IMG/VR virus record: IMGVR_UViG_3300034092_002634
Location: 1 to 64,000 of that record
From: a virus
DNA length: 64,000 nucleotides
Direction: 5' to 3' (one strand)
The position numbers and the translations under genes were made by a program. Shown piece by piece: positions 24,401 through 63,911 of this stretch. The notes below the pieces were generated by a model. The model had not been told where the DNA came from and did not search any database. It saw nothing but the letters and a program-made list of their open reading frames with translations. Position 1 is the stretch's first letter, and each line of letters opens with the position of its first letter.

Positions 24401-27400
24401 CAACAGACAGTACAGGTCGATCCGCAGAAGGTGCTCGATCTTCCAGAATCATACGAGCGATCTCGGTTGAAGCAGCATTTAGCACACTGGTAGTTACAGA
24501 TTCAGATGAATCTGTAGGAGACACGGTTACTCCTAAATCTTGAAGAATTGCCTTATCTTCTTCAGCTAGCTTGTCTATTTCCTCGATTTTTTGAAGTCTT
24601 GCAGCAACATCTTCATTTTTTGCACGTATTCCTTGGTTAACTCTTCGCGCACGCTGTATATCCCACGATGGCTGGTGCATTTCGGGAGGATTGGACTCAT
24701 CCTCAATTGCAAAATCCTCAAGCATCGCCCGCTTAAGTTTTAAACGATCTCTTTTTTTACTTTCTTCTGATTTTTCCTTAGAAGCTGGATCAGACGCAAG
24801 TAAATTGGCGCGCTCTATCAGCGCTTGAGCTGCTTCAGGGTTTTCGGCTGCGTTGTTGAGTATAGCCGTAAGATCTTCCGGATTCCAAGAATCTCTATCT
24901 TTTTCGTCTTCCGGTGCCATAGATATGGCAGCACCTATAATATTTCCAAAGTCTAACCCAACGAATGGTGAATCTGTTGAAATTTCGCCATTTTCCATGT
25001 CCAGACCAAGTCTAGCAAACGCATCTAGAAGCGGCGGCATTCCGCTTTCTTGAGTGCCTTCTTTAATACCGCGATTTGCTCTTTTTTTGAGCGGTTCAAA
25101 ACTCTCTATTTCTGCTTGTCTTTTTTCTTCTTCGGGTTTTAGTAAACTATCTAATTTTTCTATTTCAGAGTCTAATTGTGCTATGTATTCTTCTGAGGGC
25201 ACGCTATCAAAAAGTTCTTCTACAAGTTCGTCAAAAACAGATTCTTGTTCTGCTCGGGACCCAGGTGCCTCATATGAGTATGCAAAGTTTGGCCGCTGGT
25301 ATTCTTGTATAGTTACAGGGCCGGTAACAGATTGCTTCTCAATTTGTCTTTTTTTAGATCTTATTGTAACTTCTTGAAGTGTTTTTAGTTTTTCAGTACG
25401 TTGTATTTCCTGCTCAAGCGCTGCTACTTTTTCCTCCCCTGCAGCTATTTCCTGATCTACTATTGTTTGTGCATCTTCTCCGGTTATTGCTGCTTTTTTC
25501 TTTGCTTCTAGCTCAGTCAACTCAGCAGTCAATTCGATCATTTTTTGCGTTTGTTCGTTGCTAATTGGAGTTTCTTCTTGATCGTTTGTAATTTCCCCTG
25601 ACGCTACCATTGCCTGCAGTGCTACTAAAGCTTCTCGACCAGCAGCCACGTCTCTTTGAGTACTCATTCTACTAGCGTCTATCTGACCAATTGCAGCGGA
25701 AAGCGGCAGTATTTGAACTCCTTGAGTTTCAAAATGAGTTGCCGCAGGTGATACGCTTTGAACTCTACGCATGTAAAACGCATCAGTTGTTGTTGGAGAA
25801 ATTGCAACAGGCACGTCAGCTTTAGGGTCGAACACCACTCCGAGTTCTTCTTGCGCCTCTCTTTCAGCGGCTTGCCATTGTGTTTGACCAGGATCAACAG
25901 TACCCATTACCGGAATGGCTACTCCTCTCCCTTTGTACGATTTTGTAGACTGCCCGACAACAACCATTGGCTCGGATTGACCTGGTACAAAGAAATAAGG
26001 TACTGCTCCTGCAGAAGCTCGATTACTTGCAGAAGTATCGGGTACATTATCTGGTGTAATTGCCGAAACCTCCGGCATTACCTCAGGACCGACAGAAAGA
26101 CCTAAAGTTTCGGCTACTGCAGCGTTTACAACTCTTGATGCATCACTGCCAGGAACTTCTGGAGAAATATCAATTCTACCCGTTTTTGCAAATCTTTCAC
26201 TTATCTGCTCTGGATAATCTGCGGTCAGCGGTAAAGTGCTGCGTCTTGACATGTACGTAAGCTCACCGTGTGATACATCTGGGTGAACATACGTTCGTCC
26301 TGCTACTTGACCTTGGCCCGTTACTCCTCTTTCTGCTGCTTCTCTTGCAAGTTTAGTTGCGGGAGATTCTAATGCTGCTATCTCTCCTTGTACTCTTGCT
26401 ATTTCTTCGTCTATTGTTTCTGGTGTTGAAATTACTGATACTGGAGTTTCTGGTGTTGCAGTTTCCGATGCGGTAGTCAATATTCCCCGTTTTACAAGTT
26501 CTCCCTCAATTGCCTGAATATTAGCTTCTGTAACTACTTTAGCTTTTCTTGCACTTATTGGCCGAGTTTGCTCAGCTGCTTCATACTCTTTTTGAGCTCG
26601 ATGCGCCTCGTCTCTTGCTTTGAAAACTTTTTGCATTTCCGGTGTTTGTTGCAATCTTTGTAACGTGGCTTTATTTTCTTCAGCTTCCTCGTAACTTAGG
26701 GAATTTCTTTTTAAGCGTGCCTGTAATGCTGCATCGTATTCATCGACAATATCTTTATGTGTTAGTTCAATCAGATTTAAAAGCGATTTTTTTCGCTCAA
26801 ATTTATCTTTAGCTCTTTCTATATCTTCTTGACGTTCTTTTTCTAATCTTTCATCTATGTCTGGCTCGTCAGTCATCGCTTGCTTTATCTGACTTAGTTT
26901 ACGTTTTTCTTGTGCTAAAGACGCCTCTAAATGCTCGGTAGATTGAGTTTCGCTAAATGATTCTTTAACAAGTCCGCCAGTCTTTACTACAGGACCTATT
27001 TGCTCGCTTCCCGTAATACCTATAAAACTTCGGTCGTCTTGCAAAGTACCCAACTCCCCCTCGTCAAGAAGCAGTCTTTCACCTAAGCCAACAAAACCTT
27101 CGGTATCGACCTCTGGATCTAGTTTACTAAATTGTCCGCTATGACTGTATGCATCGGACGCTAAGAAAACACGTGCCGGAGTTTTTGATTCAACTGCCAA
27201 AACCCTGCCTTCATGCATAATTCCGCTTTCAGTAGCCCCAATTGCCGCAGTCGAAGGTCCTGTATATCCACCTTTATCTTCGCCCAGCGTTTCTTTAGAA
27301 ATACCTAGGTCAGCTGATTCTATTAAAGCGTCTCCGGCAGTAACAAATTCATGCTTGTAGCCTTCTGAACTTCTTGTTCTGCGGTAAGCCGCGAACGTAG

Positions 27401-30400
27401 CACCAGCAATTTGTCCGGAATCTTTTTTATCTTGCCTACTATGTAAATATTTTATAAGTTCGCCAACAGTTGGGCTTGTTCCGGCTTCTTCAAATGGTTT
27501 TAAAAATTCTATAAATTGGTTTCTTGATTCATCCGTTTTCTGCAAACCTGCGCGGTTTAACATAAGTCTAGCAGTCGAATCTTTGTCATCTGCTGCAAAA
27601 AGTTGTAAAAGGTCGTTTACTTCGGTTTGTGCTGATCTATTATTGACTCTTGCTAGAATTGATTCGGTTGTAAACGGCTCGTCTGCGGGTAAATTAGCAG
27701 CTTCCTGTACCAGCATTTCTGCTAAATGTGTAGAAAACCAAGCTTTACTGACTCCATCAGCCACTGCTGCAGTAAGTGTACCTGTTTCCGCATTTTGACG
27801 GATGGCTAGTCTATCTTGATTTCCTTTTGCTTCTTGTTCTTCCTTAGAAGCTAAAAACGCGACAAAGGCCGGAGATTCTATAAGTTGATCTTCTCCAGTA
27901 GTCGAGTGTACAAAAACTGACTCATCCTCGGCTGTAACATCTTCGGTAATATTTTTTCTTTCTGTAAGATTTATTCTAGGGATTTTTAAAGGTACGGCGT
28001 TTTCGTCTATTGCTATTTCTTCATCTATTGTATCAGCATAAGATAAAACATCAATCGCTTTTTCTGAACCCGCACCTTCTGACCTCATGTCACTAATGTC
28101 TTTTTTAACTGCTGCAATTTCCCCGTCAACGTCTGATTCTTTAATTACAGCTTCAACTGCCTTAGCGGGACCATCTCCAGGTAATTCTGCTTCTAACGCT
28201 GCTCGTTCTTCTCTTAGTTTTTGCAGATTATCTAGCTTAGCTTTATGAGCCATCAAGTTAGTAAGGCGTTGCTCTTGAGTACCAGTTCCGTATCCTTGAG
28301 ATTCGTCAATCTGGTATCGGCCAGTTTGATTAAAAATTTCCTGCATGATGCCTAAATCGTAAATTGCACCACTTCTCGTCGCGGGGTCAATATTGTCCAT
28401 TTGGGCAATTGTGGAAAGATATTCAAATTTTTGAGAAATAGGATCTGGTTCCGATGCTTTGTAAGTAGCAAGTTTTTGCTTAAGGATCTTTAGTTGATTG
28501 TTTTTTTGATCTATAACCGGAAGTATTTTATCTGCTTCGTGAGGTGCTAAAGCTATTCTGCTTCGCATTTCTTCTATTTCTGCAGTTAATTGCTCAAACT
28601 CACGCATTGCTTCTTGAATTTTTATTTCATTTTCTACGTTGCGGCCATACGCACCACCGACAACTTGACCAGACTCTTGGTTTGCAACTTCTGCACCCTT
28701 GCCCAACAAGCTGTAAGACGCTCCTTGATCAGGAACGGCTGCAGCTACATCCGGACCCGTACCAACTAGTCGGTCCTGTCTTCCTAAAACTCGGGCTGCA
28801 AACTGAGGCATACCTTCGCCTGACTGCACGTTGTCAGTTAATAAATTGCTGAACAACGAAAGCGATCGGTTAACCGCTGCAGATACATCGGTTGTGTTTA
28901 TGTTAGCAGGATCAAACATCGCTAAAGCGCGAAATTCATCTTGAAACCCTGCTGGAGCAACCCCGGCTGTTTCGTAATCCGAAATCATTTGAGTGACTTC
29001 ATCAACTCCCATGCCGGCAGCGCCACCTCGTCGCCTAATTGAAGCAACTATTTGATTTTTTATTGCTGGGGCTGCCAAAGTCAACACGCGTTTAATTAAT
29101 TCTTTGGGATCCATCGACGTGTCTAACTCAGCAAGTTGCTTAAGTGATTCAGAATCTATCGCTTGCAGATGCGGAAGTTTAGCTTGCACCTCTTGAAATA
29201 GACTCTGCTCTTCTGCGTCAAGGTCGGTTGAAGTTGCTAACTTAGCATACTCAATTAAGGGAATACCGCCAGAGCCGTAACTACCCATTTCTGCGGATGC
29301 TTGAACAATTGATTGCAAACCTTTCTTTGTTCTGTAGCCACCACCAAGCGATTGATCAAGCTCTTCTCCCTCAAGCATTTTACCGCTGGCGTCTGTCGCA
29401 CGTGCTGCATGATACATACCAGTAATGACATTACCCGCAGAAGCAGACTGTCGAGATAAACCAAAAGCATCACTTATAATTTCGATAAACTCTCGATTTT
29501 GCTGACCTGACGATACTGTGCCGGCTGAGTCTAACTGCTGCGTAATTGGCGTAGTTTGATAGCGGTCTAGTGCCATAGACTGACCGGACGTCATATACTC
29601 TACTAACGACTGTACGGGACTAGTTCCATAAGAGGGCCTTGCTGGAATTGTGAGTCCCGATTGTGCAAGTCCCGCAGAAACTTCCTGAGCCTTGCTCATA
29701 ATCGGCGCTACCGCATCAGGTGTTGCAGGAATGGATCCAATAGACTGTTTAAATAAAACAGTTAGTGCTTGATCTCGCGTTAACGCCGGAGCTGTGTTAC
29801 TGCCCGGAAGTGCTATCTGTCCACGTCTTTGCGCTAACTTTTTTTCCTCTTCTGGATTTTCAGATTCAGCCAGAATCTCATCCAGTAACTGTATCTCTTT
29901 GCCAAGCTTTGCCGACTCAGTTCTGTAGCGATTAGCCATTGCTGGAGCCGCAGTTACCATACTGAGATCCGCCTGATCTCTCTGATAAACAAGTCTTTCG
30001 CGCAAACGTTTTGCGTGAGTTACTGCCAACGTAACTTCCTGTTCTTGTTCCGGAGCAACTGTCTGCTCTACAAAACGACTAGCGGACTGATCTGAAACAG
30101 CCCCTGTCGAAGTATATTGATTTATTAAATCGCCCGCAAACAAAGCAACAAACTTTCGTACTGGATCTCCAGTAACTATCGCCCCTCTAGGTCCCCGAGT
30201 TCCAGCCATTCTACCAAAAGCTGTTGTGTGTTCTGACAAAATTGAACTAGATTGAATCGCCTCCACAACCATTTTTGCAAGAGATTCAGGCAAGTCTACA
30301 GTCTGCCCTGCGATCGAAGCGGGCCTTATGTTTCCTTCTTCTATGTCCTGCATAACGGTTGAAAAGAGCGCGTCAACCGCCTTTTGTACTTCGGCGTCCA

Positions 30401-35186: not shown

Positions 35187-36140
35187 TTAAGAAGTAATCT
35201 TGATTACACCGATGTTTTGTGGCATGTCGACAACCAAACCGTAAGACATCCAAGCGTGAAGCGTGTAGTCTGCTGGTTGAATGTTCATGTCGACACTTTC
35301 TTGATATTCAGTACCGCCGTACAACAAGACCTCTCCTGCGTTGTTACCAACGAGAATAATCTTGTCTTCTGGAATGAGTGCTGCCCGTGGATTTGGGAGG
35401 TCGTTCTTGAACACCTGTGGAAGTTCAATCAACGGTACGCCCATGTAGTACGAAACACGATTTGTGTTGAGGTATTCGAGCAACTTCTCGTTAACCGGGT
35501 ACGCAATTGTGTTCGATGTGCCACTGTAAATGTACTCGCGGAAAGCAGCAAACTTATAAATAGGAAGCAATGCTTTACGAGTCCCAATGATAGCTTTGAC
35601 ACCGCCTGCGGTGTACATGACATTCTCCATCAACGTATCCAATGCCGTGTAGGTCAAGGCAGCGGTTTCGACGTAGTGTGAAGGCGTGTTGGCTGTGGTC
35701 CATACCGAGGACAGCAAGTTGAACACACGGTTCACCAAATTGTCGGTAAGGTCGAACGCAAGCTGCTGACGCATCATTTCGACCGTGATCATGTTGCCCT
35801 GCTGCACGTTCCAAAGACTCTCACGCACACCGCCGATCAAGCGATCGAACACATATGAATGATAATCCTGGACAGTGGTTGGCTGACTGACTAAATGACT
35901 GGTGCCTGGTACCATCGACTGAACCGAGTACTTACCACGACGAAGACGTCGGATAATCGGGTCGCCGATGTTAGCTTGGCGGGTGGGCATAAATGTATTG
36001 AAAAGATCCAGTGTCAAGTGATTTGGCTCAACCATCTGTACAATCAATTCTGCGAATGCGGACTTACCTGAAAGAGTAGTCCCGGCCGTTTTTGCCGTCT
36101 CAGCCAGGGCTTTCTGAAATTTCTCTGTTTCGTTCATCAT
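35187..36140 (-). CDS. Major capsid protein
   Basis: 317 aa; HK97-fold-like C-terminal features (YMGVPLIELPQ...IPEDKIILVG...YGLVV); highly biased codons; follows the protease/scaffold gene. Confidence 0.8.
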   Translation of the reverse strand: MMNETEKFQKALAETAKTAGTTLSGKSAFAELIVQMVEPNHLTLDLFNTFMPTRQANIGDPIIRRLRRGKYSVQSMVPGTSHLVSQPTTVQDYHSYVFDRLIGGVRESLWNVQQGNMITVEMMRQQLAFDLTDNLVNRVFNLLSSVWTTANTPSHYVETAALTYTALDTLMENVMYTAGGVKAIIGTRKALLPIYKFAAFREYIYSGTSNTIAYPVNEKLLEYLNTNRVSYYMGVPLIELPQVFKNDLPNPRAALIPEDKIILVGNNAGEVLLYGGTEYQESVDMNIQPADYTLHAWMSYGLVVDMPQNIGVIKITS

Positions 36141-55620: not shown

Positions 55621-55677
55621 GACCCCCTCACGTTACGGCAGAACACGTGAGGGGTTCTTTTTTTTTTATTTTTTTTC
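55621..55677 (+). terminator. Strong intrinsic terminator
   Basis: Stem cccctcacgt...acgtgagggg followed by two long T-runs. Confidence 0.8.
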
Positions 55678-55875
55678 TGGCGTCTGCTGGCACTCTGGGG
55701 CTTTCTAGGGAGCATTGAACATTATGTTCAGTTGTCGAAACGGGTTGATGCTTTTTGAAATTTTTCAGTATGACAAAGGTATGGAAGGTGTAGGTATGTA
55801 TAGGGTTTTTGACTACCTACCATCTACTGCTTGTGTAAGTAGTAGTAATCAACTGTCTTTGAAAGGACAAACATC

Positions 55876-56040
55876 ATGTCGAGCATCATCATCATCACCG
55901 TCGTCGTCATCGTCGTCACCATCGTCGTTATCATCGCTATCCCTCAGTTGATCATGAAGGGTGCAAAGACGTCTCATGAGCTGTGGGTTGAGCGCAACAA
56001 CGAGGCAATCGCTCAGAACAATGCAGCGCGCCGCAAGTAA
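55876..56040 (+). CDS. 54-aa single-pass membrane protein
   Basis: AAAGGA RBS; MSSIIIITVVVIVVTIVVIIAIPQLIMKG...RRK; not in the ORF track. Confidence 0.7.
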   Translation: MSSIIIITVVVIVVTIVVIIAIPQLIMKGAKTSHELWVERNNEAIAQNNAARRK

Positions 56041-56042
56041 CC

Positions 56043-56108
56043 ACAGCGAAACAATCTACTCAGTAATGAGTAGGTTGTATGCAGTTTATAACTGCACTGA
56101 CGAGCTGT
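56043..56108 (+). ncRNA. Type II hammerhead ribozyme
   Basis: Stem II strand acagc, GAAA, stem III caatctactc/gagtaggttg (10 bp), UA cleavage after 56079 (GUA triplet), stem I tgcagtt/aactgca, core CUGACGA, stem II strand gctgt; the full conserved core is present. Confidence 0.93.
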
Positions 56109-56150
56109 TCGTTAGTAATCAGTATTGTCTCTTTGAAAGGACAAACAACC

Positions 56151-56633
56151 ATGTTCGCAGTCATCATCACCGTCTTCGCAGTCATCGTCGCCATCCGCAT
56201 CATCAGCAGCATCACCGTCGAGATCACCACCCACCAGTACGATGTCGAGTGTGAGTGTGTCAAGTGTCAGCAGACCAGCAAGGAGATTCGCAACATGAGT
56301 AAGTTGAACGTCAAGTCCATCGAGGAATACGCAGCCATCTACGCTCAATGGGTATCAGTCGACACCTCAGTCGAAGAGTACTCGGCAGCTGCAGTTGACG
56401 TCATCATCACCACAACCGGCACTTGGAAGATGACTTACGTCGTCAACAAGTCGGTTAAGTTCACTGGCCGCACGTCATACACCGGCAAGACTTCGGGTTG
56501 GTTGTTCGAAAACGTCAACACCGGTGCAAGCGACATGTACCTCCAGATCAGTGGTAAGTCCTCCGCATGGGAAGCTCGCAACTGGTTCGGTAACGGTAAC
56601 TTCGCTGTCAACACCAAGGTCGCTGTCAAGTAA
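56151..56633 (+). CDS. Membrane-anchored protein with HxYDVECECxxC motif
   Basis: RBS; N-terminal TM helix; HQYDVECECVKC. Confidence 0.75.
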   Translation: MFAVIITVFAVIVAIRIISSITVEITTHQYDVECECVKCQQTSKEIRNMSKLNVKSIEEYAAIYAQWVSVDTSVEEYSAAAVDVIITTTGTWKMTYVVNKSVKFTGRTSYTGKTSGWLFENVNTGASDMYLQISGKSSAWEARNWFGNGNFAVNTKVAVK

Positions 56634-56642
56634 CTAACCAAC

Positions 56643-56672
56643 TAGCAACGCTCACCTGCTACAGGATGTGAG
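56643..56672 (+). ncRNA. Pseudoknot class A, copy 1
   Basis: S1 tagca/tgcta, S2 ctcac/gtgag, linkers acg, c, caggat. Confidence 0.75.
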
Positions 56673-56715
56673 AATTATCAACATTGCCCAATAAGGGCTA
56701 GAGAGAGTGACTACA

Positions 56716-57030
56716 ATGGAGAACATGCTCAACATCACCGCAATCGCCGCCAACGACTGGAACGTCTGGACCTGTGCTCACTGTGAGTCGTGCAACTTCG
56801 GTGACACGAAGGTCTGCATCGTGTGTGACATGGGCCGCTGGACCAGCTGTGACATCGAGTGCGAGCACAACCGGCCAGCACCTGCTTCGGTAGCGGTATA
56901 CGTCAACTTGGATGAGGTTGTCCAGGTGCCGTTGCCATACACCAACATCCATCAGGTGCCTGCTAATTACAAGGAACTGATGGACATGGAGCGCGAAGGT
57001 GCTCTGCAGTTGGAAATGCGCTTGTCGTAG
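56716..57030 (+). CDS. Cys-rich Zn-finger protein
   Basis: WTCAHCESCN...VCIVC (RanBP2-like spacing). Confidence 0.7.
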   Translation: MENMLNITAIAANDWNVWTCAHCESCNFGDTKVCIVCDMGRWTSCDIECEHNRPAPASVAVYVNLDEVVQVPLPYTNIHQVPANYKELMDMEREGALQLEMRLS

Positions 57031-57040
57031 TCTTGTTCAC

Positions 57041-57072
57041 CTGCAACGCTCACCTGCAGTAATGGATGTGAG
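57041..57072 (+). ncRNA. Pseudoknot class A, copy 2
   Basis: S1 ctgca/tgcag, S2 ctcac/gtgag, linkers acg, c, taatggat. Confidence 0.75.
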
Positions 57073-57130
57073 ATGTCCGTATGTCCGTATGTGTGTTTAT
57101 TATTATGTTCTTTGAAAGGACAAAACTACC

Positions 57131-57496
57131 ATGAAGTCAGTCATCAACGCAGTCATCGGCATGTTCGTGTTGGTCGTCAGCCACTTGGTCATCTACTTCG
57201 TTCGCAACCTGAAGATGGGCTTCATCTTCGGCGTCGTCATGCTCACCTTGCTTGGCTTGGGCATCAGCGGCGAATTGCCTTCTATCGACATTGTCACCGC
57301 TAAGTGGGTAGGCATTCTGACCGTTGGGTACGCAGCTGTCGTTGCTGTATTCGGTGTGTTCGTAACCGCTTACGAGATTCGTAAGTACATGGCCAAGGAA
57401 GCAAAGGGCCAAGACACCTGGATTGAGCGGATTAACCTTCTTAAGGTTGTCTACAATGTTCCAGGATACAGCTTCCGCAACAACATCACCAAGTAG
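57131..57496 (+). CDS. Three-TM membrane protein
   Basis: RBS; three hydrophobic helices. Confidence 0.75.
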   Translation: MKSVINAVIGMFVLVVSHLVIYFVRNLKMGFIFGVVMLTLLGLGISGELPSIDIVTAKWVGILTVGYAAVVAVFGVFVTAYEIRKYMAKEAKGQDTWIERINLLKVVYNVPGYSFRNNITK

Positions 57497-57501
57497 TCAA
57501 C

Positions 57502-57535
57502 ACCGGAGTGGGCGGCAACCGGTCAACTTGCCCAC
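57502..57535 (+). ncRNA. Pseudoknot class B, copy 1
   Basis: S1 accgg/ccggt, S2 gtgggc/gcccac. Confidence 0.8.
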
Positions 57536-57538
57536 CAT

Positions 57539-57576
57539 TGGAGAAGTGATGCATCTCCAGCATAGATCAGCATCCT
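57539..57576 (+). ncRNA. Tandem pseudoknot class D, copy 1
   Basis: S1 tggaga/tctcca; loop ag-t-gatgc pairs with gcatc-ct. Confidence 0.55.
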
Positions 57577-57607
57577 TGCTGCGTTTGCAGCTAGAGGGGT
57601 ATTACCA

Positions 57608-57790
57608 ATGGGTAAGTACTATCGGTCCTCGGTGGTTGTTCGTTGGTTGGTGCACAGTCTGAGCGATTGTGCTATGAGACTGATGCCAATTGGTTTGTCT
57701 GATGTCGAGGACGGTAGTCTTCGGTGGAAAGCAGCCAACTGGCTGATGCGCAAGACTAGCGACTGGGCTGTCGCGCTTAAGAAGGTCTAG
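57608..57790 (+). CDS. Hypothetical protein
   Basis: 60 aa; RBS; fits the cassette pattern. Confidence 0.6.
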   Translation: MGKYYRSSVVVRWLVHSLSDCAMRLMPIGLSDVEDGSLRWKAANWLMRKTSDWAVALKKV

Positions 57791-57795
57791 TCCAC

Positions 57796-57834
57796 CGTGG
57801 AGTAAGCGGATAACCACGTTAAAAACTTGCTTAC
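57796..57834 (+). ncRNA. Pseudoknot class B, copy 2
   Basis: S1 cgtgg/ccacg, S2 gtaagc/gcttac. Confidence 0.8.
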
Positions 57835-57837
57835 CAT

Positions 57838-57875
57838 TGGAGAAGTAATGCAACTCCAGCATAGCACTGCATTCT
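57838..57875 (+). ncRNA. Tandem pseudoknot class D, copy 2
   Basis: S1 tggag/ctcca; loop ag-t-aatgca pairs with tgcatt-ct. Confidence 0.55.
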
Positions 57876-57932
57876 CGGATGACAATCATCTGAGCTATAG
57901 CTGCCATTGCAGCTAGAAAGGTACGCCTTACC

Positions 57933-58415
57933 ATGGGTAAGAAGTACAACACGTCCGCAGTCACCGTTCGTCCGATTGCCACCGGGGAGCTTGCCTTCCT
58001 GGTCGAGGCATGGGAGGGCATCAAGCCTTCCCGCAAAGCCGCGGTGACGGTGCGGATTGCTCGGGAGACCGAGCGTCCGGCCAACTGGCGGCCAAAGACC
58101 GACAAGATCGGTCGCCGTCCTCGGATTGAGGCGGTGGTGGCTGAGCGAGAAGTGGAGGAAGGGCCGCACGAGTGCGACTTCTCGATCAGCCGGTGGGAGG
58201 ATGTCATCTACCACCATAGCGGGTGGATTGACGTAACTATCGCACGGTGTGAGTGCGGTAGTTACAACATCACTCCGGAAGACCCGGAGATCCACATCTC
58301 CGAAGACGACCACGCTCACCAAGTGTGGATTATTAAAAAGTATAGGTGTAATCCTGTGGCGTACGTTTCCGAGTCGTACGAGGGCAGTTCGCCCTTCAAG
58401 AAGCTCGACCGGTAG
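57933..58415 (+). CDS. Hypothetical protein
   Basis: 160 aa; RBS; HEC...CECG possible metal site. Confidence 0.7.
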   Translation: MGKKYNTSAVTVRPIATGELAFLVEAWEGIKPSRKAAVTVRIARETERPANWRPKTDKIGRRPRIEAVVAEREVEEGPHECDFSISRWEDVIYHHSGWIDVTIARCECGSYNITPEDPEIHISEDDHAHQVWIIKKYRCNPVAYVSESYEGSSPFKKLDR

Positions 58416-58419
58416 TCAC

Positions 58420-58459
58420 ACGTGGAGTCAACGGATAACCACGTTAAAAACTTGTTGAC
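58420..58459 (+). ncRNA. Pseudoknot class B, copy 3
   Basis: S1 acgtgg/ccacgt, S2 gtcaac/gttgac. Confidence 0.8.
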
Positions 58460-58512
58460 CATTGTATATACATAATTCTGTGTATATACTAGCTCTCGAA
58501 AGGAGCACGGCT

Positions 58513-58737
58513 ATGGAATTCCTTGAGGTATTAGTTCGCGGTAAGACGGTCAAAGATGTCAGCGTCGAGCAGATCGCGCGCAACATCTACGAAGTCACGG
58601 TGGGCCATGGCGGCGGGGAAGAGGGCCCCGACGGTGAATGGCGTGGCTACGTAATCGGTCGTAGCCAAATTATCATCGCCAGTAGCATGTACGATGCGTG
58701 CTACAAGGCGCATCACTTAGCCAAGATAATTGGCTAA
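58513..58737 (+). CDS. Hypothetical protein
   Basis: AAGGAG RBS before MEFLEV. Confidence 0.7.
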   Translation: MEFLEVLVRGKTVKDVSVEQIARNIYEVTVGHGGGEEGPDGEWRGYVIGRSQIIIASSMYDACYKAHHLAKIIG

Positions 58738-58743
58738 GTGTGT

Positions 58744-58777
58744 TGCAGAGTGGGCGGTAACTGCATAACTTGCCCAC
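58744..58777 (+). ncRNA. Pseudoknot class B, copy 4
   Basis: S1 tgcag/ctgca, S2 gtgggc/gcccac. Confidence 0.8.
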
Positions 58778-58831
58778 CATTGCATACAGTATAATTCGGT
58801 ATTGTATGCTAGCTCTCGAAAGGAGCATATC

Positions 58832-59113
58832 ATGCATAAGTATGATGTAGAGTGTGAGTGTGTAGTGTGTGTGGCGTGGACCGACCGGATCGGGCATAAG
58901 TTGGAAACTGTGGCAACATACGTTGACAACAGTGGACACGATTACGACATTGAGTGCGAATGCACTGAGTGTCAGAAGATCACGGTGGCCGAGCGCGAAA
59001 TCCAGATGTATGTCCTGGGGGAACCAATCTCTGTCCCGGTTACGATCAATCCAGAGGTTCAGGAATTCGCTGACAAGAAGTTGTCGGATAGTATTCGGTT
59101 CGATCAGCACTAA
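58832..59113 (+). CDS. Protein with two HxYD[VI]ECECxxC motifs
   Basis: MHKYDVECECVVC...HDYDIECECTEC. Confidence 0.75.
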   Translation: MHKYDVECECVVCVAWTDRIGHKLETVATYVDNSGHDYDIECECTECQKITVAEREIQMYVLGEPISVPVTINPEVQEFADKKLSDSIRFDQH

Positions 59114-59122
59114 TCAGCACTA

Positions 59123-59153
59123 GAGCTCTCGGCAAAGCTCGTTAAACACCGAG
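59123..59153 (+). ncRNA. Pseudoknot class C, copy 1
   Basis: S1 gagc/gctc, S2 ctcgg/ccgag, L3 gttaaaca. Confidence 0.75.
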
Positions 59154-59162
59154 TAGAAGGGA

Positions 59163-59753
59163 ATGTCTATGTATGACATTCTGGTTGTGACGGTGTTGGC
59201 ATTCGTGATGATGGCCGTGTTATTGAAAGGTGGTCGGTAATGAGTCCTGCAGAACAACTATACGTCGAGAAGTTGTGTCGCCAGTACTATCAGGCGCTCT
59301 ATGGCGTAGATTACGTCGTAGAGTTCGGGCATATCTTGCTGTTTCCGCATAAGCATGCGGAGGCTGTGGTCAAGCTCGAGAAACTCATGGAGAATGTCGG
59401 TTACCAGGTAGTTCGCCTGGTAGAAATTCGGAAAGGGTAAACTAGTGCACAAGATCACCCTGTTAGACGTTCGGCATAGTGCTGCCGAAAAGCTGGCCAA
59501 AGAGAAACTGCGGGTAGAAGTACCCGCAGAATACAACGGGGATTGGTTCCCCGCTGTCATGTACGTACCTGCGTATCCCCGTCAGGAGGATCACAGCGTG
59601 GATGCTTACACGTTCAAATGTGTGAGCGTCAACGCTAGCCTGAAACGTCTTAGACGGCTCTACACGGCCCTTGGTGGACGCGCAATGCCTCCGTGGTCCG
59701 GTATATTGGTTGACGGCGTCGAGGTCAACGGGAACGTCAAGGACGGCGAGTAG
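59163..59753 (+). CDS. Three coupled small genes (59163/59169-59240 membrane peptide; 59240-59440; 59445-59753)
   Basis: TAATG coupling and a 4-nt gap; no motif recognised. Confidence 0.6.
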
Positions 59754-59758
59754 TCCAC

Positions 59759-59792
59759 CTGGAGTGAGGGGTAACCAGTATAACTTCCTCAT
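59759..59792 (+). ncRNA. Pseudoknot class B, copy 5
   Basis: S1 ctgg/ccag, S2 gtgagg/cctcat. Confidence 0.75.
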
Positions 59793-59823
59793 GTACTAAT
59801 TTAGCTCTTGAAAGGAGCGTGTC

Positions 59824-60075
59824 ATGCACAAGTATGACGTTGAGTGCGAGTGTGTCGAGTGTCAGAAATCCTGGAGGGTGGAGCACATCTGGGAGACCGT
59901 CAACTCCCAGGCGGAAGCAGACTGGACTTTCTCGGGTGACACCGAGGACGAGGTCGTCGCCGCTGCGTACAAGCGCAAAGAGACTCTTCGCCCCACTGAA
60001 GAAGAGTGGATGGCTGTGGAGGACAAGTTCTTTCTCTACAAAAAGGGGAAGTTCTTGGGAGAGTTTTCCCTTTAG
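59824..60075 (+). CDS. Protein with HxYDVECECxxC motif
   Basis: MHKYDVECECVECQK; AAGGAG RBS. Confidence 0.75.
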   Translation: MHKYDVECECVECQKSWRVEHIWETVNSQAEADWTFSGDTEDEVVAAAYKRKETLRPTEEEWMAVEDKFFLYKKGKFLGEFSL

Positions 60076-60081
60076 TAGTCC

Positions 60082-60115
60082 ACGTGGTAGTCGGATAACC
60101 ACGTTAAACACCGAC
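60082..60115 (+). ncRNA. Pseudoknot class C, copy 2
   Basis: S1 acgtgg/ccacgt, S2 gtcgg/ccgac, L3 taaaca. Confidence 0.8.
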
Positions 60116-60149
60116 ATCATTTTATGTGCAAAAGCACAAGGAGAATCCA

Positions 60150-60626
60150 ATGCCTAATTGGTGCAGTAACGTTGTTCAACTCAGCAAAGACGGGTACGAC
60201 TTTACGAGCATGGAAAAACGCATCCCTACCGAGGGACTCTATGCGCAATTCCTTCCCGCACCCGAGGGACTTGACGACCACCAACTGACGGATTGGTGCT
60301 ACGAGAATTGGGGCGTTAAGTGGGACACCCAGAACGCAGATGCCGGCGTCGATGGCGACCGCATTCAACTGTGTTTTGATAGCCCATGGAGCGCACCACG
60401 GCAGTGGCTCGCCTATATGGTGAGCATCGGGTTCGATGTCCGAGGTGCATTCTGGGAGCCAGGCATGGCCATGGGCGGTGTCTACACTACCTTGCACGAT
60501 GGAGCACTAGTTGCTCCAGCATTGGAGTGGACGCAGGACAACCTCGTCGAACGGGGTAGCGAAATGTACGAATATCTCATCAGTTACGGACTGATCTCAG
60601 AAGATGATGAAATGATCAACGACTAG
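60150..60626 (+). CDS. DUF1281/YubB ferredoxin-like fold protein
   Basis: MPNWCSN...DWCYENWGVKWD...FDSPWSAP...FWEPGM. Confidence 0.8.
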   Translation: MPNWCSNVVQLSKDGYDFTSMEKRIPTEGLYAQFLPAPEGLDDHQLTDWCYENWGVKWDTQNADAGVDGDRIQLCFDSPWSAPRQWLAYMVSIGFDVRGAFWEPGMAMGGVYTTLHDGALVAPALEWTQDNLVERGSEMYEYLISYGLISEDDEMIND

Positions 60627-60631
60627 CTCGC

Positions 60632-60665
60632 ACGAGGTAACCGGCAAACCTCGTTAAACACCGGT
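60632..60665 (+). ncRNA. Pseudoknot class C, copy 3
   Basis: S1 acgagg/cctcgt, S2 accgg/ccggt, L3 taaaca. Confidence 0.8.
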
Positions 60666-60695
60666 ATCTTTTTATGCTCACGAAAGGAGCACGGT

Positions 60696-60965
60696 ATGTT
60701 GTATTGCATGATGGCGGTGTCTCGATGGCTTACTGGTGACCCGGACTTCGGGTACGATGGGGAGATGATCCCCAAGGTCACCGCGGTGATCTACATCCGT
60801 GAACAGCCCTTTGAGGACTGGGAGCGGGAGGAAGGCAGGAATATCTGGAAAATCAAGCTCGGTGAGTCTACTGTTGTGTCAATGCATAGGTGGACAACTG
60901 ATCTCTCTCCAGTGGAGATCAGTACCAAGCATGACTGCGAAGTCATTGACTGGTCCAAGCGGTAA
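60696..60965 (+). CDS. Hypothetical protein
   Basis: AAGGAG RBS; 89 aa. Confidence 0.65.
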   Translation: MLYCMMAVSRWLTGDPDFGYDGEMIPKVTAVIYIREQPFEDWEREEGRNIWKIKLGESTVVSMHRWTTDLSPVEISTKHDCEVIDWSKR

Positions 60966-60974
60966 GTGGAGATC

Positions 60975-61008
60975 TCGGAGTGAGGGGATAACCGATGTAA
61001 CTTCCTCA
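60975..61008 (+). ncRNA. Pseudoknot class B, copy 6
   Basis: S1 tcgg/ccga, S2 tgagg/cctca. Confidence 0.75.
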
Positions 61009-61041
61009 ATAGTTATATTAGCTCTTGAAAGGAGCAACGCT

Positions 61042-61670
61042 ATGCAAGTACTGCAAGCACGGGGAATTATCCTGGAAAATCTGGAAGCGCTTCGCGAGTT
61101 CAAGCCCGAGGACTTGCGGCTGGTTGCGTTATACAACGCAGCAGCAGGGCAGTCCTGGGCCGAGTTCAACCTTATCCGCACAACGTGTGCGGACTGGGAC
61201 GAGCTCACCTACAACAACTTTGAGGAGGAAGACCTCAAGAATTTGTGGGACGAACTCTCTGAGCATTTCAGCAAAATCTGGGAAGGAACCAAGTAATGCG
61301 AGTACGTGGCAAGCAGCCGCATGTCTATCGTGAGTCAGAAACGGCTACGATAGCGCGGTACACCAACTTGCTCCCTCCTGTGTACGAGGCAAGTGCACAG
61401 GAGTGGAAGGTGTTTGGCCGTCAGGATACCATTGTCCGTGTTGGTACGCGGGCGACTATGCTGACGTATCTCAAGGGTAGGCGCGATCAGTATACTCGTA
61501 TGCACGGATACGAGGATTTGACTGACCCCTGCCTCAGGCTGAGGTGGGATACTAGTCTGCGGTGCTTTCACGTGACAGAGCCGCAGTTGGACCTACCCGT
61601 GTTCTCAGGTACTAAGTACATGTGTACGTGGTATCTGGTTGGCCGGTCGGACGAGTTCCAAGGCCTGTAG
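61042..61670 (+). CDS. Two coupled hypothetical genes (61042-61296; 61296-61670)
   Basis: AAGGAG RBS; TAATG coupling. Confidence 0.65.
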
Positions 61671-61673
61671 TGT

Positions 61674-61704
61674 GTTGACAACGCTCACCTGTGTCGGATG
61701 TGAG
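61674..61704 (+). ncRNA. Pseudoknot class A, copy 3
   Basis: S1 aca/tgt (or gaca/tgtc), S2 ctcac/gtgag, L3 ggat. Confidence 0.7.
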
Positions 61705-61746
61705 AAAGTAATTATAGCCCTGAGGGGCAAGAAGGAGAGTGTGACT

Positions 61747-62025
61747 ATGGGTAAGGTTATCACCGCAGCGGTCTTCATCAGCATGTTCAACAGCTCATTC
61801 CGGGACAGGCTCGAGTGGATGAGTGAGGAAGTTCGCGACCTCACGGTGGACGCGCTCACCCGGGAAGGCTACGACGAGGACGATTTGCGTCGGATGTCGG
61901 ATGCCTTTGCCAAGCTGGAGGAAAAGTCCAGCGACTTGATCGAGACAGACTACGCCAACGATCTGCTGAACGTGGACGAAGAGAGTCTCGATGAGGGTTA
62001 CTACTCGGATGGTGAAGACGAGTAG
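61747..62025 (+). CDS. Highly acidic small protein
   Basis: AAGGAG RBS; D/E-rich. Confidence 0.7.
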   Translation: MGKVITAAVFISMFNSSFRDRLEWMSEEVRDLTVDALTREGYDEDDLRRMSDAFAKLEEKSSDLIETDYANDLLNVDEESLDEGYYSDGEDE

Positions 62026-62034
62026 TAGGTAGCG

Positions 62035-62067
62035 GACTGGCAACTCTCGCCTGCGTCGGATGCGAGG
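62035..62067 (+). ncRNA. Pseudoknot class A, copy 4
   Basis: S1 gac-(tg)-gca/tgc-gtc, S2 ctcgc/gcgag, L3 ggat. Confidence 0.75.
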
Positions 62068-62109
62068 AAGTAATGTATAGCCCTGAGGGGCAAGAAGGAG
62101 AGTGTGACT

Positions 62110-62571
62110 ATGGGGACTCAGCATTGCGTCTTGATCCAGGACCGTTTCGACAACGAGGCCAAGTTCAACTTGGTCATCACCCACGACGTACCCTTCCACC
62201 CGGAAGCGGTCTTGTGGATTGCTCAGCTGTACACGGCAAAGCGTTGGGGGTCACAGCCCGACGTGTACCGCACTGCCGAGCTCGATGTCAGCGTCGACTG
62301 GAACGACATCGTGTACGTTCCGGCGCTAAATGTCCTGGACTTCGAGTCCTCGGACTACTGGCCAACACAGAAGCAGCTGAGGTTGGCTCGGATGGCGTTG
62401 GATTCGTACCGTATGTTTTATGACGAGTTGGCAAGGCAGGAGAAGATTATCTCCGGCTATGTCCGTCAGGAGATGCACAAGCAGTACGGTGAGGACACCG
62501 TCGCTATGCGTCTTCCCACCTTCCACAGCCGTGCTTCGGCATTGGACATCCTAGTTCATCTGGCACGGTAA
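62110..62571 (+). CDS. Hypothetical protein
   Basis: AAGGAG RBS; about 153 aa. Confidence 0.7.
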   Translation: MGTQHCVLIQDRFDNEAKFNLVITHDVPFHPEAVLWIAQLYTAKRWGSQPDVYRTAELDVSVDWNDIVYVPALNVLDFESSDYWPTQKQLRLARMALDSYRMFYDELARQEKIISGYVRQEMHKQYGEDTVAMRLPTFHSRASALDILVHLAR

Positions 62572-62577
62572 GTCCAC

Positions 62578-62611
62578 ACGAGGTAGCCGGCGAACCTCGT
62601 TAAACACCGGT
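62578..62611 (+). ncRNA. Pseudoknot class C, copy 4
   Basis: S1 acgagg/cctcgt, S2 gccgg/ccggt (G-U), L3 taaaca. Confidence 0.8.
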
Positions 62612-62648
62612 ATAGTATTATAAGTGCAAGAGCACAAAGGAGAGCAAG

Positions 62649-62975
62649 ATGCGTTACTCAATCAAGTTCGTGGCGAGTGCGAAGAAGTCCGTTCCCTTCG
62701 GCCTGGGTATGAGCAAGAAGTTCCACGACGCTGTGTGGAAGGGTGGGTGTAAGCGCCAGTGGCACGACATTGGTATCAAGGCCACGGAGTACTGCCTGCG
62801 GACACGTTCGTGCATGATCGACGTCGAGGCCTCGGACGCTGCTGAGTTGTCGTTTAAGCAGGAGGTGTGCCAGAGCCTGGTCGACTACATCTGGCAGGCA
62901 AGCAACAAGCCCTTTACAAGCGTAGAGGTGTTCGAGACGTGGAGTCACAAGGTTATCTACAAGGCTGATCTCTAG
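62649..62975 (+). CDS. Hypothetical protein
   Basis: AAGGAG RBS; 108 aa. Confidence 0.7.
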   Translation: MRYSIKFVASAKKSVPFGLGMSKKFHDAVWKGGCKRQWHDIGIKATEYCLRTRSCMIDVEASDAAELSFKQEVCQSLVDYIWQASNKPFTSVEVFETWSHKVIYKADL

Positions 62976-62979
62976 GAAT

Positions 62980-63011
62980 GTCTGGCAACTCCCACCTGCG
63001 ACGGATGTGGG
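62980..63011 (+). ncRNA. Pseudoknot class A, copy 5
   Basis: S1 gtc-(tg)-gca/tgc-gac, S2 cccac/gtggg, L3 ggat. Confidence 0.75.
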
Positions 63012-63050
63012 CAAGCAAAGCAATGTGCAAGTGCACAAAGGAGCAACAGC

Positions 63051-63911
63051 ATGTCTGATGTCAAAGTCCCTGCAGCAGAGCGTATTGGGTCCGCGATGGT
63101 TGAGAAGCTGATCGAGTCACTCGAAGCGGGAGTGGCAAACGGTCAATGGAAGCAGCCGTGGACAACGTCAAAGCAGATCAATGCGGTCACCGGGGCTAGC
63201 TACTCCGGTGCCAATGCGATCAACTTGATGTTGATTGGCGCGGAATGCCCTTACTGGGCTACCTTCAATCAGTGGTCGACAGCCGGTTACCGTATTCCAC
63301 AGGGTACGGAATCCAGCGGTTTTGTCCACACCCCTCCGAGACGGAACAAGAAGACGGAGAGCGGCGAAGAGATCACCATATTCGTCCCATCAAAGACGTT
63401 TGTGGTGTTCAACGGTTCACAAGTCGTTGACGCCGATGGCAACCCGTTCACGTGGGAATCTTCGCCACCTGTTCCGGTTCTTCCAGAGATCGAGGCCTTC
63501 TTCGCCAAGCACAATCCAACGATTGTGCATGACGATCCCAGTAGTGCATATTATCATCCGTCGAAAGACTTGATCAATATGCCGCCGATCAACTCGTTTG
63601 TTGACAATGTTTCATACTATGGAACGTTAGCGCACGAGATGATTCACTGGACTGCACACAAGGACCGGCTGGATCGCGATCTGTCTCAGTATGGCCGTGA
63701 TCGTAAAGTACGCGCATTCGAAGAACTCATAGCTGAGTTCGGCGCGGCCATTATCGGTAGTGAACTTGGTCTAACTACTGAGGTGAGAGATGACCATCTG
63801 CAGTATCTAGCTTCTTGGCTATCCTCCCTTAAGGAGGATAAGACGGTACTGCGGCGGGCGGTTACCGAAGCAGGTAAGGCTTCAGCCTACGTCAGCAGAG
63901 ATGCTGAGTAG
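63051..63911 (+). CDS. ardC: ArdC-family antirestriction protein (ssDNA-binding domain + zincin metallopeptidase)
   Basis: WKQPW, N..TG..YSGAN, WATFNQW, VFNGSQV, AYYHPSKDLINMP, LAHEMIHWT, EELIAE, YLASWL. Confidence 0.92.
   Translation: MSDVKVPAAERIGSAMVEKLIESLEAGVANGQWKQPWTTSKQINAVTGASYSGANAINLMLIGAECPYWATFNQWSTAGYRIPQGTESSGFVHTPPRRNKKTESGEEITIFVPSKTFVVFNGSQVVDADGNPFTWESSPPVPVLPEIEAFFAKHNPTIVHDDPSSAYYHPSKDLINMPPINSFVDNVSYYGTLAHEMIHWTAHKDRLDRDLSQYGRDRKVRAFEELIAEFGAAIIGSELGLTTEVRDDHLQYLASWLSSLKEDKTVLRRAVTEAGKASAYVSRDAE

Follow-up and report, generated by a model that had tools for sequence, protein, structure and literature searches.

The stretch of DNA analysed here, referred to as the window, comprises bases 1-64000 of an IMG/VR phage record whose full length is 82,652 bp. 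On its plus strand, positions 55876-63051 hold an array of approximately 19 small ORFan genes, delimited by gene calls and all on the same strand. When genes were re-called by stop codon, Shine-Dalgarno sequence (SD) and start, 16 spacers between non-overlapping genes were obtained from 56040 to 63051, and all 16 contain a structured RNA element 3-12 nucleotides (nt) past the stop codon: one hammerhead ribozyme motif, five pseudoknots of one family (class A) and ten of another (classes B and C, hereafter B/C). These results bear out a sequence-only reading of the locus, which had claimed an element after the stop in each of 16 spacers between 56.0 and 63.05 kb and had rightly left three coupled junctions (59240, 59440/59445 and 61296) out of that count.

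On the evidence of its sequence, the element at 56044-56108 (plus strand), located 3 nt past the TAA stop at 56038-40, is a genuine hammerhead motif of type II with a complete core. Every core nucleotide is present (GCGAAAC, GUA, CUGACGAG, G10.1-C11.1 and A15.1-U16.1), including the C3U4G5A6N7G8A9 and G12A13A14 segments and the NUH cleavage triplet of type II hammerheads, and the same core recurs in 10 distinct copies. Stem II is formed by the two ends of the element (56044-47 with 56104-07) and is followed by GAAA (56048-51) and by stem III (56051-62 with 56067-78), whose 12 pairs are closed by A15.1-U16.1. The predicted cleavage site lies after A56079, at the end of the GUA triplet, and is followed by stem I (56080-96, 7 pairs) and CUGACGA (56097-103). 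The minimum-energy fold of the element is a three-way junction with type II topology, in which stem II is open (z = -5.2), and RNAalifold recovers a hammerhead consensus fold from the ten distinct copies, with compensatory changes in 7 of 22 pairs. At gathering score, Rfam reports no hammerhead match in the window. The type II model (RF02276) aligns end to end at 56044-56108 with 18.8 bits in a 96-nt search, and further copies, located elsewhere in this genome and in three relatives described below (G001, G006 and G007), score 25.6-28.9 bits, all below the 37-bit cut-off because of a long stem III and odd stem I loops. The description of this element as a canonical hammerhead thus holds for its full core and covarying fold, but not for its Rfam score. 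We saw no obvious loop-tail complementarity that could bring loop I into tertiary contact with stem II or the 3' tail; by analogy with its class, the element would be expected to cleave itself. A sub-threshold match to the 'freshwater-2' model (25 bits, E = 1.9), which overlaps the hammerhead hairpins and the SD, was treated as noise. Outside the window, at genome position 66839-66910, lies a second type II hammerhead candidate (28.9 bits), 3 nt past the last gene of the transcription unit and directly followed by a strong hairpin and a U-tract, so that the operon appears to be bracketed by hammerheads.

The ten B/C elements were identified on the plus strand by an architecture scan and by covariation. 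Six belong to class B (57502-57534, 57796-57833, 58420-58458, 58744-58776, 59759-59791 and 60975-61008) and four to class C (59123-59153, which lacks loop L1, 60082-60115, 60632-60665 and 62578-62611, a knot with one G-U pair that G001 also retains as an element). The scanner was set to a stem 1 of 4-6 bp, an L1 of 0-2 nt, a stem 2 of 5-6 bp, an L2 ending in AA and an L3 containing AAC, with at most one G-U pair. Applied to the whole 82.6-kb genome, it returned all ten sites and, also on the plus strand, one overlapping extra match; the minus strand gave no match. The elements present an L1 of 0-2 nt, an L2 of 3-6 nt, an L3 of 6-11 nt and a stem 1 of 4-6 bp. The letters of the stem 1 loop read AG-stem 2-GGAUAA or UA-stem 2-NNAA, and an A-rich loop crosses stem 1.

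Both B/C stems covary. In eight class B copies, two of them from unrelated phages, 95.5% of the alignment cells are paired, versus 73.7% after shuffling, and 8 of 11 pairs show changes on both sides, values reached in none of 500 shuffles; controls in which the partner strand was slid gave at most 52% pairing. A structure-parsed set of 18 B/C copies from four genomes contains 181 pairs (175 Watson-Crick, 6 G-U and no mismatches) with 14 distinct sequences per stem, which upholds the claim that the stems differ between copies and yet stay paired. Shuffling partners between copies reduced pairing to 54 ± 5.5% (maximum 76%), although, with many copies being paralogues or close orthologues, shuffling makes the copies look more independent than they are. 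On the complementary strand the six G-U pairs would turn into A-C mismatches, and the fold thus belongs to the mRNA sense strand. The proposal that G-U pairs identify the sense strand is therefore sustained for B/C, but only one such pair lies in the window's own copies, the rest being found in relatives.

Two class B spacers carry extra shared hairpins between the knot and the SD (57536-57600 and 57834-57925), first UGGAGA...UCUCCA and then GCUGC...GCAGC, and are the longest spacers of the array (73 and 99 nt). A possible tRNA-like or RNase P substrate was also considered: CCA follows four class B copies and is absent after the other six knots, and the idea was dropped.

Class A comprises five plus-strand elements, at 56643-56672 (beginning 9 nt past the stop), 57041-57072, 61676-61704, 62038-62066 and 62983-63011; in the last two, stem 2 reads CUCGC/GCGAG (a compensatory variant) and CCCAC/GUGGG, respectively. 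The class A core motif was found on the plus strand at these five sites only. In 16 copies from four genomes stem 2 is fully paired (100%) and includes two covarying pairs. The three inner pairs of stem 1 are nearly invariant, one of them covarying once, and the outer two pairs covary (CUGCA/UGCAG, CCGCA/UGCGG, UAGCA/UGCUA and UUGCA/UGCGG) and are broken in 4-5 copies, which make up a TGGCA...GCGTC subfamily. The class A hairpin is therefore secure, whereas the class A pseudoknot, judged from the same alignment, is probable and less secure than that of B/C because of the broken outer pairs. Taken together, the covariation that the earlier reading had called for is present in the B/C stems, in class A stem 2 and in the outer stem 1 pairs of class A, and its assignment of 15 H-type pseudoknots is borne out for all ten B/C elements and carries less certainty for class A. 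Its further remark that no such elements were seen in the other 56 kb agrees with the knot scans, which are array-only on this genome; the second hammerhead, at genome position 66839, lies beyond the window. A reading of the 5' half of class A (TTGACA/CTGGCA) as a sigma-54 or sigma-70 promoter was rejected: its spacing to any -10 or -12 element is wrong and no such promoter was called in the scan.

The sequence around the elements is organized in a regular manner. Hammerheads lie 0-3 nt, class A knots 5-12 nt and B/C knots 3-11 nt past the stop codon, once a few mis-called open reading frames (ORFs) and, in an unrelated phage, a single 37-nt case are set apart, while the distance from element to next start codon varies from approximately 15 to 100 nt. 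Behind each knot, the predicted fold leaves 12 nt unpaired, and their AU content is 68%, as compared to 41-48% for the arrays. In most spacers this unpaired linker leads into a hairpin that often encloses or abuts the SD, and the start codon comes next. A recurrent SD-enclosing hairpin, GCUCUYGAAAGGAGC, is exemplified by the copy at 58492-58506, and additional copies end near 58826, 59818, 60690 and 61035, all on the plus strand. The linker and ribosome-binding site (RBS) motifs are confined to the array.

The stops that precede the elements at 56040-62975 of the window and in the G006 and G007 arrays read TAG in about two thirds of cases and TAA in the others; TGA does not occur among approximately 41 such stops, whereas about 40% of the long genes elsewhere in the window phage and its relatives end in TGA. 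Additional out-of-frame stops are often found between the stop codon and the knot. The lack of TGA and these extra stops suggest that the stop codon is part of the module and that ribosomes are meant to leave before the fold. Stop-codon read-through and -1 frameshifting were also considered and set aside, as no slippery heptamer is present and read-through would give short products that lack conservation. A short 5' flank, (G)UCCAC, UUCAC or UCCGC, is common to roughly half of the knots of classes A, B and C, whatever their stem 1 sequence (e.g. 57791-57795, 59754-59758 and 62572-62577), and could be a recognition or crossover site.

A search with the SD hairpin identified two complete relatives of the window phage, G006 (79,945 bp) and G007 (78,041 bp), whose core proteins share approximately 35-70% amino-acid identity with it, with almost no array genes in common. 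Despite this turnover of array genes, class A copies are nearly identical across the three phages. The G006 array (13.0-24.5 kb) holds one hammerhead, one degenerate hammerhead, five class A and six B/C knots, and that of G007 (71.4-75 kb) two hammerheads and four class A knots. All hammerheads in the relatives start 0-3 nt past a stop codon and are followed by leader, SD and ATG, which is the slot that knots occupy. Moreover, AGUAUUGUCU is common to the leaders behind the window hammerhead and behind a G007 class A knot, indicating that the structured element has been swapped in front of a homologous leader. Scanning metagenomes with the class A pattern yielded 23 true loci (159 kb) on lake-metagenome contigs. 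These consist of mixed arrays of class A, B/C and hammerhead elements on one strand, with no knot matches on the antisense strand, and in 11 of these loci hammerheads alternate with class A and B/C knots. Roughly 60 copies of the elements were found in this analysis. In all, a hammerhead takes the knot slot in four related genomes and 11 metagenome contigs, and the proposal that it fills the same slot as the knots is thus repeated well beyond the window. The same pattern also returned 32 gut-metagenome matches, which were rejected because they represent an unrelated, though conserved, sequence whose stem 2 is broken. At 14487-14555 of G006, the degenerate hammerhead has its CUGANGA strand destroyed (CUGACUUCG) and stems III and I intact, and is apparently a decayed ribozyme retained in the slot.

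In 2011, Perreault et al. described clustered hammerheads that flank single genes in prophages, including an ardA gene, with the proposal that they divide long transcripts into mRNAs of gene length (PMC3088659). The hammerheads reported here share with them a complete type II core, a position between small early genes near an anti-restriction gene, the presence, here in relatives, of several copies per operon, and the proposed transcript-cutting role. They differ in that most boundaries hold pseudoknots instead, in that their scores (18.8-28.9 bits) lie below the 37-bit cut-off and in that we identified no tertiary loop contact.

That several phage lineages alternate between knots and hammerheads at exactly this slot raises the question of whether class A, B/C or both are themselves new self-cleaving ribozymes, which at 30-40 nt would be the smallest known and interchangeable with hammerheads. 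The same guilt-by-association logic led to the discovery of twister-sister, pistol and hatchet, the loop nucleotides are strongly conserved across unrelated phages, and the lack of any Rfam match means that the knots are not of a known class. Nonetheless, their loop and stem lengths are variable, which is unusual for a catalytic core, they have no conserved unpaired dinucleotide resembling a scissile site, and a simple H-type knot of 31-40 nt would be smaller than any known natural self-cleaving class. In addition, B/C resembles a non-catalytic roadblock RNA, coremin, and we accordingly regard catalysis by the knots as quite unlikely. A likeness to the pistol ribozyme (CGUGG...CCACGUUAAA) was likewise rejected, since P2 and P3 are missing, no model matches and no P2 strand fits an L3 of 6-10 nt.

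Beyond this phage group, the B pattern was found with both stems intact in two unrelated viral lineages, represented by G002 and by G003 and G004, the latter two being a single phage recorded at 25 kb and at 48 kb. In the podovirus fragment G002, the knot is preceded by a gene that comes after the major capsid gene and is followed by the tail tubular gene, a position at which the ends of messages are typically set. No BLAST-detectable protein is shared by G004 and the window phage. In total, stem 2 pairs in 5 of 38 viral-contig matches to the B pattern, and in prokaryote genomes, which served as a negative control and gave at least 120 matches, stem 2 pairing was seen in none among the matches listed. 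A match in G005 lies inside a 176-codon open frame and is likely a chance match. On its minus strand (approximately 36032-36059 in the coordinates of that strand), G004 also carries a compact 28-nt H-type knot with 5-bp stems, an L1 of AG and an L3 of UAAAC, in addition to its longer B-type knot. As these are the same AG and UAAAC letters, B/C is probably, on sequence grounds, the enlarged version of a small knot that belongs to a broader family.

In the gene 32 leader of phage T4, a knot is followed by an unstructured AU-rich stretch and the RBS. The same order of parts in the array opens the possibility that the knots are operators on which an RNA-binding protein, of the host (e.g. S1) or encoded by the phage, would nucleate and so regulate how the next gene is translated. 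Binding to a specific sequence would be in keeping with the conserved single-stranded letters, and three element types could permit differential control. An operator, on the other hand, is hard to reconcile with a start-codon distance that ranges from about 15 to 100 nt while the stop-codon distance is fixed, and a hammerhead in the same slot does not fit such a role. The B-type knot of G004, a phage with no detectable shared protein, also makes a phage-encoded partner unlikely. Overall, we consider the operator explanation unlikely.

Comparison among close variants revealed that cassette exchange maps to the elements. A gene replacement in lake variant X8 stops exactly at 58421, the 5' edge of the class B knot at 58420-58458, and in lake variant X11 a joint from 62575 to 60630 falls at the 5' edge of the class C knot at 60632-60665, with a different cassette order. 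A close relative of the window phage, G001, which is 95% identical where alignable, is without two cassettes and has one hybrid class A copy. In one strain variant among lake and subsurface metagenome contigs, the gene body at 57952-58421 is swapped for 429 other bases; all junctions of strain variants in metagenome contigs fall at knot 5' edges.

These exchanges could be taken to mean that the repeats are mainly DNA-level recombination modules, akin to those of T4-type phages or to integron attC sites, with RNA folding being secondary. The complete gene turnover between relatives with retention of the elements, and the seeming inclusion of a non-TGA stop in the module, point in the same direction. 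Interleaved compensatory changes, sense-only G-U pairs and an A-rich crossing loop are, by contrast, RNA features; simple repeats need sequence identity and not covariation, and neither a ribozyme in the same slot nor motifs without a sigma-70-like promoter are in keeping with such modules. A primarily DNA-level function is hence distinctly improbable, and recombination at the repeats is probably a by-product of their similarity. The T4-type modules in question are the promoter-early stem-loop (PeSL) cassettes reportedly described by Arbiol et al. in 2010 in hyperplastic regions. As in the PeSL system, repeated intergenic motifs surround small early ORFans and genes are shuffled at the motifs, but in the array there is no sigma-70-like promoter and a covarying pseudoknot takes the place of a simple stem-loop.

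The array is flanked by clear transcriptional signals. An intrinsic terminator at 55624-55676 (plus strand), consisting of a 10-bp GC-rich stem followed by U10AU8, closes the preceding unit, and directly after it comes the AT-rich promoter region and leader of the early operon (55680-55875). The first small array gene starts at 55876 and plus-strand genes continue beyond the window to genome position 66835; intrinsic terminators near 66.95 kb, after genome position 66.9 kb, close the unit. A scan of 55-64 kb called no plus-strand sigma-70-like promoter and returned two weak terminator-like matches on that strand, both within genes. With terminators at the ends, no internal promoter and internal terminator-like matches only within genes, the array is most simply part of one polycistronic unit of approximately 11 kb that extends to about 66.9 kb.

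This arrangement fits the earlier proposal that the elements process or protect a polycistronic mRNA. It also bears on the possibility that they are transcription pause, termination or antitermination signals, or per-gene promoters. Their intergenic position, U-rich runs after two class C copies and TANNNT-like hexamers in some linkers would be compatible with such signals. Yet most copies lack a U-tract, the linker hexamers are inconsistent, the terminator scan calls none of the 15 knots, and clear intrinsic terminators are present only at the ends of the unit. In the absence of a plus-strand sigma-70-like promoter at 55-64 kb, and with terminator-like matches inside genes, we deem a transcriptional role very improbable. 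The claim that the elements have no U-tract needs to be qualified accordingly: no knot is called as a terminator, but U-rich runs do follow two class C copies.

Searches for known RNA families, as the sequence-only reading had suggested, found no match for the knots. At gathering score, Rfam returned only tRNAs from the window and 98 kb of relatives' arrays, and lax scans with E up to 10 on a 9-kb region and on a 361-nt stretch with two class B copies gave no knot match. The two pseudoknot families in the hammerhead slot were not found in Rfam or in the searched literature.

The closest published analogue of B/C is the coremin family of exoribonuclease-resistant RNAs (xrRNAs), known from plant viruses and other RNA viruses. 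Both Xrn1 and scanning ribosomes are stalled by coremin elements (sequence GUCCGAAGACGUUAAACUAC), which also stimulate frameshifting; in their Watson-Crick variant, xrRNA-WCC, loop and spacer form a canonical pseudoknot with a hairpin behind it (PMC10520033, PMC10321173). B/C resembles coremin (xrRNA-C, PMC6546385) in being a small hairpin with a loop that base-pairs to the sequence right behind it, and in part also in a (C)GUUAAAC segment directly 3' of stem 1 and another hairpin farther downstream. CGUUAAA is located directly 3' of stem 1 in 6 of the 10 B/C copies in the window. Compared with the coremin spacer GUUAAACUAC, class C has (G)UUAAACA and the other class B copies only UAAC or AAC, and the CUAC part of that spacer is replaced in B/C by the 3' strand of stem 2. 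With a loop of 11-13 nt, B/C does not follow the loop rule of coremin hp1, a stem of about 4 bp (YGAD/YGNNAD, or G plus three pairing nucleotides in WCC). It also differs from coremin in that stem 2 consists of 5-8 Watson-Crick pairs, instead of 3 or non-canonical pairs, in that the next hairpin follows a 9-13-nt unpaired linker and is not immediately adjacent, and in that the host of the window phage is bacterial and has no Xrn1. Class A has no coremin-like letters whatever. By analogy, the knots could be the first bacterial or phage exoribonuclease-resistant RNAs and structural cousins of the coremin of eukaryotic viruses, a possibility that we advance tentatively and rate well below even odds. 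Given that punctuation of transcripts by hammerheads has been known since 2011 (PMC3088659) and that B/C resembles coremin (PMC10520033, PMC10321173), to speak of a categorically new system was an overstatement. What is distinctive is that a hammerhead, class A and an expanded B/C knot occur side by side, with every spacer filled.

The size of the B/C knots also invites comparison with a more general group. Compact H-type pseudoknots include those of the T2 and T4 gene 32 leader, of luteovirus (BWYV) frameshifters and of the preQ1-I aptamer, which is built of a 5-bp P1, a short L1, an A-rich 3' loop and a short P2. The knots described here resemble this group (gene 32, BWYV [PMC10321173] and preQ1-I) in size, topology and the A-rich loop along the minor groove of stem 1, and they differ from it in having no slippery site, no conserved read-through product, no SD overlap and no Rfam match. 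The similarity between the B/C and preQ1-I architectures could in principle indicate a small-molecule riboswitch with a preQ1-I-like fold. However, no Rfam riboswitch model scores on the 361 nt scanned with lax filters, the B/C knot does not overlap the SD, and ten copies in one operon stand before unrelated ORFan genes, making this explanation extremely improbable.

In summary of the sequence comparisons, it is well supported that the elements are RNA-level cis elements under purifying selection, given their covarying stems, sense-only G-U pairs and conservation despite the turnover of array genes, and the earlier claim of selection on the transcript is upheld on the same grounds. It is equally well supported that the knots are interchangeable with a self-cleaving ribozyme and that the elements mark cistron boundaries of a polycistronic early transcript. 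Arguing from the known systems, we favor the interpretation that the knots are non-catalytic RNA-level boundary elements for mRNA processing, stability or insulation, which act beside hammerhead cleavage, and assign it a probability of roughly 0.5.

Under the favored interpretation, the 56-63 kb region would be the front of one long early transcript, running from the terminator at 55.65 kb to the terminators near 66.95 kb, and a compact cis-acting RNA module would stand at each boundary between independently translated genes, no more than about 12 nt past the stop. The hammerhead would cut the RNA, so that the upstream piece would end in the stem III hairpin and a 2',3'-cyclic phosphate, while the downstream piece would begin with a 5'-OH and the stem I hairpin. 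A 5'-OH end is a poor substrate for ribonucleases (RNases) that depend on a 5'-monophosphate. Class A and B/C knots would do the same job without catalysis, as mechanically robust structures; for B/C, this robustness is expected from the A-rich loop along stem 1, the design behind the strength of luteovirus and coremin knots. They may thus serve as roadblocks to exonucleases, to scanning by 5'-end-dependent RNases or to post-termination ribosomes at the boundary. RNase E and RNase Y classically cut where an AU-rich single strand separates two structures, and the unpaired AU-rich linker is a likely entry site for such a host endonuclease. After a cut in the linker, the knot would cap the 3' end of the upstream gene and the SD-proximal hairpin the 5' end of the downstream gene. 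Each gene would then be a portable cassette whose expression is independent of its neighbours, which would explain why cassette exchange maps to the elements.

Several observations weigh against this interpretation. B/C departs from the coremin loop rule and its next hairpin is 9-13 nt away; the knot is anchored to the upstream stop and yet travels with the downstream cassette in the lake variants; and the conservation of loop letters (AG, GGAUAA and AACUU) across unrelated phages suggests an interaction more specific than a passive roadblock.

The closest functional parallel in a phage early region comes from T7, where early-gene boundaries are RNase III sites formed by long imperfect hairpins of approximately two helical turns. 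Both systems place structured RNA at every early-gene boundary of a polycistronic phage transcript, and after the T7 cut a protective structure stays on the message ends. They differ in that the 30-40-nt knots, with about 10-12 stacked pairs, are too short for RNase III.

The role of self-cleaving ribozymes in bacterial and phage genomes is a long-standing question, and the window phage group amounts to a natural experiment in which a single slot holds either a hammerhead or one of two uncatalogued knot families while the genes have otherwise turned over. Each of the two families is a good candidate for a new class of ribozyme or for a bacterial equivalent of the viral RNAs that resist exonucleases, and, if the knots prove to be protein-free cistron insulators, they would provide parts for operons with predictable expression.

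The genomic setting of the array is that of a lake phage: many lake-water metagenomes carry DNA identical or near-identical to it, and megablast against the INPHARED phage collection gave no match. Minus-strand structural genes occupy the left 40 kb of the window, and from about 40 kb on plus-strand genes encode a ribonucleotide reductase, terminase, portal and ferredoxin-like protein. The G+C content rises from approximately 44% to 51-53% past 52 kb. The array ends in an anti-restriction-type gene (63051-63911, plus strand) that matches phrog_7245, annotated as an anti-restriction protein. None of ten array proteins tested has a Pfam match, and one of the ten has weak PHROG matches of unknown function. 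A WhiB search for a clue to the host found nothing. Three array proteins make up a cysteine-rich paralogue family (56238-56262, 58832-58870 and 59824-59862) that has no Pfam match and carries the motif H-x-Y-D-V-E-C-E-C-V-x-C at or near the N-terminus, in one copy after a membrane helix. Within the minus-strand tail module, a single open reading frame of 6477 amino acids (aa) spans 12483-31916, with counterparts of approximately 5100 aa in G006 and 5000 aa in G007 at 25-37% identity.

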